Positions 15,964 to 18,686 of a stretch of 43,701 nucleotides of DNA are shown here, piece after piece (the first letter of the stretch is position 1; the number at the start of each line of letters is the position of its first letter). The notes under the pieces were generated by a model that was not told where the DNA came from, made no database searches, and saw only the letters and a list, made by a program, of their open reading frames with translations. Position numbers and translations under genes: made by a program. Location of the stretch: positions 1 through 43,701 of IMG/VR virus record IMGVR_UViG_2571042636_000008. The stretch is one strand, 5' to 3'. This stretch comes from a virus (Duplodnaviria; Heunggongvirae; Uroviricota; Caudoviricetes).

Positions 15964-16100
15964 GCCGTGACGTTATCGAACGCATCCGCGACCGCTGGCA
16001 AAAGCTTCGCCTCCTGCGTAGCCGCGGCACCGTGCTGGTCGACTACAAAATATTACGCAATTTCGTCCGTATCTATAAGCGCCTGGGAGAAGCAGCATGA
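15960..16100 (+). CDS. Small basic ORF (46 aa) translationally coupled between rusA and Q
   Basis: ATG 15960 overlaps rusA stop (ATGA); its stop overlaps the Q start (ATGA); [46 protein letters not shown]; below the track's size cut-off. Confidence 0.35.
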
Positions 16101-16786
16101 CAGCTCAATACTTGGAATTTGTTCGCCAGCAGCTGATAGTGGCCACCGCCGATCTGAGTGGTGCGACGAAAGGGCAACTGGTAGCTTTTGCAGAGAACGC
16201 GCAATTTACCGCTACGGCGCGCAGCCGTGGCCGGAAGAAGGTGTATAGCGAGGTGAAGCAAAAAATGGTTAACCCGGATGGACCGCCGATGAGCGGCAGC
16301 CAGTCCCGCGCTAAGGGTTCCTCAATCGCTCTCGTTCTGCCCGTTGAATACTCGACAGCCAGCTGGCGCCGCGCCCTCCTGTCGCTGGAAGACCACCAGA
16401 AATCCTGGTTGCTGTGGAACTACAGCGACAATATCCGCTTTGAGTATCAGGTAGCGATAACACAGTGGGCATGGGAAGAATTCCGTGATCAACTCGGCGC
16501 TAAGAAAGTGGCCGGCAAGACGATGGAGCGGCTGAAGAAACTGATATGGCTGGCGGCACAGGACGTGAAAGCAGAGCTGGCGGGTAAGTATGTATATCAG
16601 CACCAGGACCTTGCAGCCCTGTGTGGCGTTAAGCCTGATAACTGGTGCCATAACTACGCTGATTACTGGCGGGCTATGTGCGCCATTTTTAAGCGGCTTG
16701 ATAGCGACTCTCTTCTCTGTGCTGTGAGAACACGATCACAACAAAAAGCGACTTTTTCGCAGCAGGGTCTTGCAAAAGTCAATTAA
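16097..16786 (+). CDS. Late-gene antiterminator Q-like protein
   Basis: 229-aa ORF in Q position, followed by promoter/terminator-rich gap, tRNAs and lysis genes; family from memory. Confidence 0.7.
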   Translation: MTAQYLEFVRQQLIVATADLSGATKGQLVAFAENAQFTATARSRGRKKVYSEVKQKMVNPDGPPMSGSQSRAKGSSIALVLPVEYSTASWRRALLSLEDHQKSWLLWNYSDNIRFEYQVAITQWAWEEFRDQLGAKKVAGKTMERLKKLIWLAAQDVKAELAGKYVYQHQDLAALCGVKPDNWCHNYADYWRAMCAIFKRLDSDSLLCAVRTRSQQKATFSQQGLAKVN

Positions 16787-16874
16787 ATACGTCATATTTG
16801 AGTCTACTTTGATATGCTGCCTTAACTTTAAGTGGCGGCATGAAGATGATAGTCATATACCAGTTTGTAAAATT

Positions 16875-16902
16875 AGCCTCGGCAATCCGCCGGGGCTTTT
16901 TT
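16875..16902 (+). terminator. Rho-independent terminator (candidate tR' for the short PR' transcript)
   Basis: AGCCTCGGC-aatcc-GCCGGGGCT followed by TTTTTT. Confidence 0.55.
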
Positions 16903-17347
16903 ATGCCTGCGATCCGGTCAGGGCTCTTGGGTAGAGACGTGCTGCACGACACGTCAAAGCCCTTCCGCGCAGAGCCCTGAACCAGATTGAAGTTACTCAG
17001 CAATAAGAAAACTGCATGTCATCATTTGCTTATATCTTATTGACCAGAAAATTAACATGTTGTTAATCTATTCGTGTGGTGAATCCCCCTATGCGGAGGG
17101 GCGACCAGTCACTTACAGTGATCTGTAAATGCAGCGCGGGCCATGTCGACTGGGACATGCTCACCGGGAGGCACCCGGCACCATAATGCAATGCTACATA
17201 AGCTATTTGATAGTGGGGTTGCCGTTTCGGCTTCTCCAGCTATGTTTAAAAGGTAGTAACGGAAAACGAGCGCTCTCCTGGTAAATCGGAAGCTCGGACT
17301 ATTAGGTGCGCCTCGAACCGTTGAAGAATCAGTATTTCCTACCTTCT

Positions 17348-17374
17348 GCCCGCCCCTCTGAGCGGGCTTTTTTT
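17348..17374 (+). terminator. Rho-independent terminator
   Basis: GCCCGC-ccctctga-GCGGGC followed by TTTTTTT. Confidence 0.55.
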
Positions 17375-17407
17375 CGCCTAATTCAGGCAAAACCATAAAG
17401 CATTAAG

Positions 17408-17432
17408 GGCTGCGCTATTTCGCGGCCTTTTT
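17408..17432 (+). terminator. Rho-independent terminator immediately upstream of tRNA-Asn
   Basis: GGCTGCG-ctattt-CGCGGCC followed by TTTTT. Confidence 0.45.
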
Positions 17433-17439
17433 CATTTCA

Positions 17440-17514
17440 GGGTCAGAAGCACAGCGGTTGTGCGTTCGGCTGTTAACCGAATGGTCGAAGGTTCGAATCC
17501 TTCCTGTCCCGCCA
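17440..17514 (+). tRNA. tRNA-Asn (anticodon GTT), phage-encoded
   Basis: Hand-folded cloverleaf: D stem GCAC/GTGC, anticodon stem TTCGG/CCGAA with loop CTGTTAA, T arm GAAGG-TTCGAAT-CCTTC, 3' CCA; one T:T mismatch in acceptor stem and A at position 8. Confidence 0.6.
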
Positions 17515-17519
17515 AATTA

Positions 17520-17596
17520 GCGCCATTAGCTCAACCGGAGAGAGCAATAGCCTTCTAAGCTATCGGTTTCAGGTTCGAGTCCTGAATGGTGCACCA
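17520..17596 (+). tRNA. tRNA-Arg (anticodon TCT)
   Basis: Hand-folded cloverleaf: acceptor GCGCCAT/ATGGTGC, D stem GCTC/GAGC, anticodon loop CTTCTAA, T arm TCAGG-TTCGAGT-CCTGA, CCA; resembles E. coli argU from memory. Confidence 0.8.
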
Positions 17597-17730
17597 GATA
17601 ATGGCCTGACCTGATAACGGGTTCATACCCCAACTTATCAGGGGCGTTGCTGCAACAGCGTCACAGGCCGCCAGACCCAGCTAGGGTATTTTCGGTCATC
17701 ACCGACATTGCTATTACCCTCATGCTTATT

Positions 17731-17759
17731 GCCTGCCTAACCGCAGGCTTTTTTATTTT
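17731..17759 (+). terminator. Rho-independent terminator downstream of the tRNAs
   Basis: GCCTGC-ctaacc-GCAGGC followed by TTTTTTATTTT. Confidence 0.55.
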
Positions 17760-17865
17760 CAGGGTCGCGGGAATCACCCTCGACGCTTTGTTGGTAAATC
17801 AGCCCGACGGCCCTGAACCTTTTACTGACTACAGATAGCACCCCGAACATTATCGGAGGTGAGAG

Positions 17866-18180
17866 ATGCAACGTATGAACCCAACCGATGGTCACAATCT
17901 GCCTTACTGGTGGTCAGCCTTGCTTGGTATCTTTTCCGTCCTGAGTCTGCAGGATTATGTCTTCATCATTGGCGCCCTGATCTCTGCCTTCTTCACAATC
18001 AAGACGTATTACGCAAAGCGCAAGGAAGAGCGAGAGCGACTGGATGAAGAGAAAAAACGCACGCAGCTGTTGGCCAGTTATCTGGCTGATGTCTCCGCAA
18101 AGCCTGGAAGTGACCGCCCGGCTTCAGCCGAAGTGGTAACCGAGGCCTTGAAGCGGATCGCAAGTGATACACAGGGGTGA
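17866..18180 (+). CDS. Holin (pinholin-like, two TM helices)
   Basis: GGAGGTGAGAG RBS; hydrophobic segments [14 protein letters not shown] and [15 protein letters not shown] then charged C-terminus; first gene of lysis cassette, overlaps endolysin start. Confidence 0.65.
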
Positions 18181-18686
18181 GCATGACGCCATCAATGAGG
18201 AATAAACTGATTGGCGTGATCGCCGGCGGCGGTGGCGCCATAGCCATTGCCTCTGCGCTCATCACTGGCCCAACCGGTAACGATGGTCTTGAAGGTGTGC
18301 GATATGTTCCTTATCAGGATGTGGTAGGCGTCTGGACTGTCTGCTATGGCCATACTGGCAAAGACATCATGCTCGGCAAGAAGTACACCGAGGCTGAATG
18401 CCGTGCGCTGCTCAGCAAAGACCTGAACACCGTTGCTCGCCAGATTAATCCTTACATCCAGAAGCCGATCCCCGAGACAATGCGCGGGGCTCTGTACTCG
18501 TTCGCGTATAACGTTGGCGCTGGCAACTTCCAGACCTCCACGCTGCTGCGAAAAATCAACCAGGGCGACCAGAAAGGCGCATGTGACCAGTTGCGCCGCT
18601 GGACCTACGCCAAGGGCAAACAGTGGAAAGGACTGGTAACTCGCCGCGAGATTGAGCGCGAAGTTTGTCTCTGGAGTCAAAAATGA
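18177..18686 (+). CDS. SAR endolysin (T4-type lysozyme fold, GH24-like)
   Basis: Gly/Ala-rich N-terminal signal-anchor-release segment [19 protein letters not shown]; lysozyme-like body from memory of P21 R21. Confidence 0.85.

Follow-up and report, generated by a model that had tools for sequence, protein, structure and literature searches.

A gene at 17440-17514 of the window most probably encodes a functional elongator tRNA-Asn(GUU) and, to judge from its sequence and its setting, is the first of two tRNA genes in a cassette in the late-operon leader of a lambdoid prophage. By the window is meant the whole stretch of DNA that was analysed (43,701 nucleotides), which is a complete lambdoid prophage with the integrase at its left end and the virion genes to the right on the + strand. 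The conservation of the gene and the covariation of its stems are the reasons for regarding the product as a working tRNA. The preliminary description of this site left the choice between a diverged phage tRNA and a pseudo-tRNA. The former reading is the one that stands, whereas the covariance score, the conservation and the covariation all speak against the latter. The features that seemed to mark the gene as damaged, an A at position 8 and a mismatch in the acceptor stem, recur in a widespread lineage of phage tRNA-Asn genes.

Sequence and fold of the tRNA-Asn gene

ARAGORN calls a tRNA-Asn here with the anticodon GTT. The Rfam tRNA covariance model (RF00005) matches positions 17440-17511 with 63.9 bits (E = 1e-11) and runs end to end over model positions 1-71, with one non-standard pair that lies in the acceptor stem. 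A low covariance score had been named in the preliminary description as the outcome that would count against a tRNA; the observed score lies far above the gathering score of 29. It is the top Rfam score in the tRNA-Asn lineage described below and falls in the middle of the range for the phage tRNAs that were scored (38.7-77.5 bits).

All four stems of the cloverleaf are present (7-bp acceptor, 4-bp D, 5-bp anticodon and 5-bp T) and 20 of the 21 pairs are standard. The acceptor stem consists of G1-C72, G2-C71, G3-C70, the mismatch U4·U69, C5-G68, A6-U67 and G7-C66, and is followed by A8 and A9. The D stem GCAC/GUGC carries the D loop AGCGGUU, position 26 is a G, and the anticodon stem UUCGG/CCGAA closes the loop CUGUUAA. 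After the variable region UGGUC come the T stem GAAGG/CCUUC with the T loop UUCGAAU, and the 3′ end consists of the discriminator G73 and an encoded CCA. A8, the T:T mismatch in the acceptor stem (U4·U69) and the canonical Asn anticodon loop, which had been noted earlier, are all confirmed by the sequence and by the Rfam model. Two features had been overlooked, namely U21 and a second tRNA gene, tRNA-Arg(UCU), which begins after a spacer of 5 nt.

The conserved tertiary core of tRNAs comprises U8, A14, G18 G19, A21, U33, U54 U55 C56 and A58, and U8 is nearly universal. Here A14, G18G19, U33, the T loop UUCGAAU and a G15:C48 pair are present, and the departures from the consensus are A in place of U8 and U in place of A21. 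Since position 21 is a U where the usual base is A, an A14-U21 pair can lengthen the D stem to 5 bp, and the minimum-free-energy fold does so. That fold is the cloverleaf despite U4·U69; with U69G or U69A it is computed to be about 3.4-4 kcal/mol more stable. Fold energy by itself says little (z-score -1.7), and the case for a tRNA is carried mainly by the covariance model and by the comparison with related genes.

A decaying pseudo-tRNA would be a once functional gene that gained A8 and the U·U mismatch and fell out of translation. What speaks for such a history is that A8 and U21 both depart from the tRNA consensus and that U4·U69 breaks a stem pair. Against it stand the intact Asn identity elements and CCA, the presence of no more than one mismatch, the highest score in the lineage and the absence of a pseudogene flag in the NCBI PGAP annotation. 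The conservation and the covariation set out below weigh further against decay, and this reading is considered very unlikely.

Position between the late terminators and the lysis genes

The features around the gene are collected in Table 1. On the same strand they follow the order Q, STnc100, terminators, tRNAs, holin-like ORF and lysozyme, with spanins after the lysozyme. The lysis cassette begins about 350 nt downstream of the tRNA-Asn gene, and a near-identical E. coli prophage is annotated alike in RefSeq. The interval between Q with its terminators and the lysis genes is the classic site of tRNA genes in lambdoid phages, and a matching order of Q, terminator, tRNA and lysis genes is found in HK639, in Klebsiella phages and in E. 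coli prophages. Klebsiella prophage tRNAs between the antiterminator and the lysis genes have also been reported in the literature (PMC7371120).

Table 1. Features of the late-operon leader and adjoining genes (positions in the window)
Feature	Position	Strand	Evidence
Antiterminator Q gene, 229 aa	16097-16786	+	PF06323 Phage_antiter_Q, 267.7 bits; position as annotated Q in related phages
STnc100 prophage sRNA family match, full-length	17047-17241	+	Rfam RF02076, 79.7 bits against gathering score 47
First terminator-like hairpin and T-run, downstream of STnc100	17348-17375	+	Terminator scan, RNA fold
Second terminator-like hairpin and T-run (CUUUUUCAUUUCA), ending right at the 5′ end of tRNA-Asn	17405-17439	+	Terminator scan, RNA fold
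tRNA-Asn(GUU), 75 nt, with A8, U4·U69, U21, G73 and encoded CCA	17440-17514	+	ARAGORN, Rfam, minimum-free-energy cloverleaf, identical phage copies, covariation
tRNA-Arg(UCU), next in the mini-array; decoder of the rare AGA codon	17520-17596	+	ARAGORN; Rfam, 67.5 bits
Third terminator-like hairpin and T-run, between tRNAs and lysis genes	17731-17755	+	Terminator scan
Holin-like ORF, start of the lysis cassette	17866-18180	+	PF16080, weak match, 24.9 bits, below cut-off
Lysozyme	18195-18686	+	PF00959, 157.5 bits

The STnc100 match probably represents the short leader transcript that is made from the late promoter and then terminated. A match to the same family also lies upstream of the tRNA-Asn in Klebsiella phage 2b LV-2017, and STnc100 has been linked to the PasD sRNAs of pathogenic E. 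coli prophages (2026 preprint). A minus-strand ORF of 95 aa (17109-17396), whose counterpart appears as 'hypothetical protein' in Klebsiella phage records, overlaps the match and is probably spurious.

A consensus scan found no sigma-70-like promoter between the terminators and the tRNA-Asn. A separate promoter for the tRNAs was rejected: the sole promoter-like site in 16000-18300 lies at 16846-16873, and such sites are no more numerous than in shuffled sequence. Downstream of the two tRNAs a spacer of about 135 nt (17597-17730, + strand) is predicted to form a stable multi-hairpin fold (-47 kcal/mol, z = -2.8). ARAGORN and a permissive Rfam scan gave nothing credible as a third tRNA or known RNA in this spacer, the extra Rfam matches having E values of at least 0.1 and scores far below the gathering scores. 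The element TTTCAGGGTC recurs after the third terminator, at 17757, and was considered as an insertion scar; because the repeat is found in only 4 of 97 related loci it is taken to be due to chance.

The junction of terminator and tRNA is a constant feature of the related loci. In 112 of 112 such loci among the IMG/VR matches listed, a GC-rich hairpin with a T-run (CUUUUUCRUUUCA) ends at most about 10 nt before G1. The stems of the hairpins differ between these 112 listed loci (L008-L126) yet the changes are compensated. In the matches listed, tRNA-Asn always leads a mini-array of variable make-up: Arg-UCU follows it in 34 loci and Thr-UGU in 28, in another 28 it stands alone, and the remainder have combinations with Gly, Phe, Met or Ser. 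The strict order of terminator and then tRNA-Asn can serve to mark where the late operon begins in lambdoid prophages of Klebsiella, Enterobacter and E. coli.

This arrangement also suggests a role in cis, in which the gene would act mainly as an RNA or DNA element and not as a decoder. In one version RNase P, by cutting immediately behind the terminator, would part the leader from the late mRNA; in another the gene would be a conserved patch of homology at which lambdoid modules recombine. Both draw on the place of the tRNA-Asn as first gene next to the terminator hairpin in every one of the listed loci, on its location at the junction of unrelated upstream and downstream sequence, and on the interchangeable partner tRNAs. 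A cis element, however, would need neither an invariant GUU, G73, an encoded CCA and an intact T loop nor a covarying 15:48 pair, and relatives of the gene reside inside the large tRNA arrays of virulent phages, where there is no such junction. A mainly cis-acting element is thus judged very unlikely. Cis-acting roles could be secondary to decoding.

Distribution and conservation of the 75-nt sequence

By BLAST, 14 phage records, with E. coli, Klebsiella or Enterobacter as host, contain the 75 nt without a single difference. In complete E. coli genomes the sequence is found in 79 of 5,426, as an identical copy in nine, with one change in 66 and in a more divergent form in four. NCBI PGAP annotates it as tRNA-Asn and not as a pseudogene in the E. 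coli genomes among the matches listed, and it is annotated as tRNA-Asn in several GenBank phage records as well. It is unannotated in HK639, in Klebsiella phages 2 and 2b LV-2017 and in some other records; the records that omit it, these three among them, should gain the annotation.

A scan of IMG/VR with the 39-nt core from the anticodon to the T arm, a pattern that sets 39 of the 75 positions, found at least 119 loci. Among the matches listed, 108 of the 122 complete copies are identical over the 36 positions that are free of the pattern, and A8 and U4 are present in all 122. Flanks of sufficient length are available for 91 of the listed copies; the tRNA is about 99.9% identical among them, whereas the 100 nt on each side, when globally aligned, are only about 54-60% identical to the window, that is, unrelated. 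These 91 copies comprise 70 upstream and 64 downstream contexts and only eight tRNA sequences. A gene that stays constant while its surroundings are replaced is not a neutral relic, and this is one of the chief arguments against a pseudo-tRNA. Recent horizontal spread could be partly responsible for the strong identity among the enterobacterial copies.

The uncommon variants of the 75-mer mostly harm the 3′ strand of the acceptor stem or the terminus (C5·U68, G1·A72, G73U, CCA to CAA). Since such changes harm rather than compensate, some individual copies are probably degenerating. The main tRNA-Asn of Klebsiella phage 2b LV-2017, which has U4·C69 and a C56A change in the T loop, has a damaged look; the copy in Klebsiella sp. 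R390 has a mismatched pair in the T stem, and that in Pantoea communis is truncated. Damaged relatives of this kind lend the pseudo-tRNA reading some support. Klebsiella phage 2b LV-2017 has in addition a second tRNA-Asn(GUU) about 0.9 kb upstream of the main one (L006, 606-677; 50.2 bits), with the canonical U8, acceptor ends GGGUC...GUCCC, U4·U69 and a 3′ ACA in place of CCA.

A separate variant changes C70 to U, which gives G3·U70 beside U4·U69 and lowers the predicted pairing probability of the acceptor stem. It occurs in E. coli NZ_CP083701 (L001, 6401-6475) and in two further loci (L109 and L027), and about 26 further genomes match the E. coli one at 99.9% across 761 nt. G3·U70 is found together with U4-A69 in the Rouxiella plasmid pSP2, in Pantoea deserta and in a second copy in Aeromonas phage AhSzq-1. 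The G3:U70 pair is the textbook identity element for alanine. By analogy, a tRNA with C70U and the GUU anticodon might be mischarged with Ala, and if this is true such variants could cause programmed miscoding of Asn to Ala.

An A8 lineage with an unusual core and a soft acceptor pair

BLAST and pattern scans extended the lineage to distant members in T5-like Aeromonas and Vibrio phages, Aeromonas phage APT65 and Salmonella phage pSal-SNUABM-01, in FelixO1-like Erwinia and Salmonella phages, and in prophages of Pantoea, Erwinia, Serratia, Cedecea and others. A strict degenerate pattern gave two matches only; the looser pattern that found relatives has A8 fixed by design, and the independent evidence for A8 is therefore the 122 listed IMG/VR copies and the relatives found by BLAST. 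In 19 distinct sequences G1-G3, U4, A8, A9, G10, C11, A12, A14, U21, GUU, G73 and CCA are invariant.

Within the lineage A8 travels with A14/U21 and with an A12-U23 pair in the D stem. Phage tRNA-Asn genes outside it have the canonical U8, U12-A23 and A21. In a background of 192 other distinct tRNAs called by ARAGORN in the loci examined, with Asn and His excluded, about 92% have U8, which makes A8 unusual in general and the rule in this tRNA-Asn lineage. The pattern suggests an alternative tertiary core, in which A8 would dock on A14-U21 in place of the U8·A14·A21 triple.

The cloverleaf alignment of the 19 members argues that the fold is under selection for pairing: 94% of the cells are paired, both sides have changed in 12 of the 22 stem pairs, and the observed covariation score was reached in none of 500 shuffles, while slid controls were about 40-46% paired. 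The 15:48 tertiary pair covaries as well, being G:C in the temperate enterobacterial branch and U:A in most other members. The pseudo-tRNA reading is at odds with this pattern, in which neither A8 nor U21 varies across a deep lineage whose stems have many compensatory changes.

The acceptor mismatch fits into the same comparison. U4 is invariant, and position 69 is G in nine sequences, A in three and U or C in seven. On this alignment 4:69 is the one habitually weak acceptor pair, U·G in most relatives and U·U in the subgroup to which the gene of the window belongs. Read across the aligned sequences, A8, A14-U21 and the weak 4:69 pair have been inherited within the lineage, are compatible with function and are not lesions.

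The tRNA-Asn of Erwinia phage phiEa21-4 (L133, 301-376; 43.3 bits), of the same lineage, even has three consecutive U·U in the acceptor stem, at 4:69, 5:68 and 6:67. This type is conserved in about 30 related Ounavirinae records and is unannotated in the original phiEa21-4 record. The array of Aeromonas phage AhSzq-1 also contains a tRNA with the anticodon CUA (L127, 2554-2628), which ARAGORN labels tRNA-Pyl and Rfam scores at 69.5 bits. CUA is an anticodon of the amber-suppressor type.

Proposed function

As a functional tRNA-Asn in the late leader, the gene would be expressed as follows. Transcription would begin at the late promoter, which lies downstream of Q, and RNA polymerase would normally halt at the terminators between 17348 and 17439. 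Q made after induction would allow readthrough, and the tRNAs would be transcribed together with the lysis and virion genes. This dependence on Q is suggested by the gene order, with the tRNAs lying behind the terminators. RNase P would then cut at G1, directly after the U-tract of the terminator, and the encoded CCA would be exposed at the 3′ end.

Charging would fall to the asparaginyl-tRNA synthetase of the host. The identity elements of E. coli tRNA-Asn are G34, U35, U36 and the discriminator G73; all four are there in the sequence and are invariant across the lineage, which is the reason for expecting that the host enzyme accepts the phage tRNA.

The charged tRNA would add decoding capacity for AAC and AAU during synthesis of the late proteins, which are richer in Asn. 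Asn codons make up 4.86% of the codons of late genes versus 3.85% of those of early genes, an enrichment too modest for a strong codon-supply rationale, which was set aside. Because the host already has four identical tRNA-Asn genes and Asn is not encoded by rare codons, the benefit in codon supply would be modest. AGA and AGG together account for 1.1-1.4% of the phage codons, a share several-fold above the E. coli level, and the rare-codon argument fits tRNA-Arg(UCU) better than tRNA-Asn.

A different benefit would arise if the tRNA-Asn served in counter-defence. Its odd core (A8, hence no s4U8 site, and a 5-bp D stem) and its soft acceptor stem would resist a tRNA-cleaving toxin of the host or of a competitor and so keep translation going in late infection. 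The lineage differs from host tRNA-Asn at about 29 of 78 aligned positions, and its odd traits are conserved and not random. Rescue of phages by their own tRNAs from defences that target tRNA is also documented, as with a tRNA-Tyr against retron-Eco7 (PMC11555353). However, the anticodon loop CUGUUAA is the same as that of the host, so there is no sign of the anticodon-loop changes for escape that have been described for other phage tRNAs, and escape from host nucleases by way of this loop was rejected. In the single published experiment that came to light, the tRNA-Asn of phage SP15 gave no rescue from PrrC170, and the analysis implicated no defence nuclease specific for tRNA-Asn. The probability of a counter-defence tRNA is rated as very small.

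A broader proposal is that the A8/A14-U21 core and the weak 4:69 (and 5:68) pairs are a selected adaptation, for toxin evasion or for altered identity, the G3·U70 variant of one E. coli clone being a form of the latter. Sequence comparison indicates that such a selected architecture may have been kept over divergence down to about 76% identity; the proposal as a whole is nevertheless unlikely. If it were true, the phage tRNA-Asn might be distinguishable from that of the host, for example by being immune to a toxin or defence nuclease that targets Asn-tRNA, and the odd core could free it from s4U8-dependent control. A functional elongator tRNA-Asn is the reading preferred here, with A8 and the soft pair as tolerated heritage of its lineage.

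Comparison with known systems

The gene is already known and annotated in public records, and it would work like other lambdoid tRNA cassettes. What is added here is minor and descriptive, namely the A8/U21 signature of the whole lineage and its soft 4:69 pair; the current understanding of phage tRNAs is unchanged by it. A literature search gave nothing specific on A8/U8-A14 in phage tRNAs or on this tRNA-Asn in lambdoid phages. What the comparison does teach is that A8 together with a U·U acceptor mismatch is no evidence of a pseudogene in this widespread phage tRNA-Asn lineage, which thereby offers a natural example of a tRNA presumably working without U8.

The tRNA-Asn of the host (E. coli asnT/U/V/W, four copies) has the same GUU anticodon, CUGUUAA loop, G73 and CCA and is identical to that of the phage at 49 of 78 aligned positions. 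It differs in having U8, A21 and a fully paired acceptor stem, UCCUCUG/CAGAGGA.

The tRNA-Asn genes of virulent phages with tRNA arrays belong to the lineage described above. Those of AhSzq-1 and Vibrio phage X1 (Demerecviridae), APT65, pSal-SNUABM-01 and phiEa21-4 (Ounavirinae) are 76-87% identical to the tRNA-Asn described here and share G1G2G3U4, A8A9, the D stem GCAC/GUGC, A14, U21, G73 and the encoded CCA. In contrast to it they mostly have U4·G69 and not U·U, U15:A48 and not G15:C48, and a D loop of 8-10 nt. They lie in arrays of 6-15 or more tRNAs of lytic phages and not behind a Q terminator.

The same 75 nt, 100% identical, are found in HK639, in the Klebsiella phages ST11-VIM1phi8.1, vB_Kpn_Chronis and GZ7, in Enterobacter phages and in E. 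coli prophages. In all of these the gene occupies the same site, between Q with its terminator and the holin and lysozyme genes. The phages that share it differ in their flanking modules and in the partner tRNAs, which are Arg here and Thr, Gly, Ser or none elsewhere.

The arrangement as such recalls the Stx phage 933W, whose ileZ-argN-argO tRNA cassette downstream of Q/PR′/tR′ is said to have been described by Plunkett et al. in 1999. Both have a small array in the late leader after Q and a terminator, a tRNA for the rare codons AGA/AGG and presumed Q-dependent expression. The likeness is one of arrangement: in contrast to 933W, Asn comes first here, there is no Ile tRNA and no toxin genes follow.
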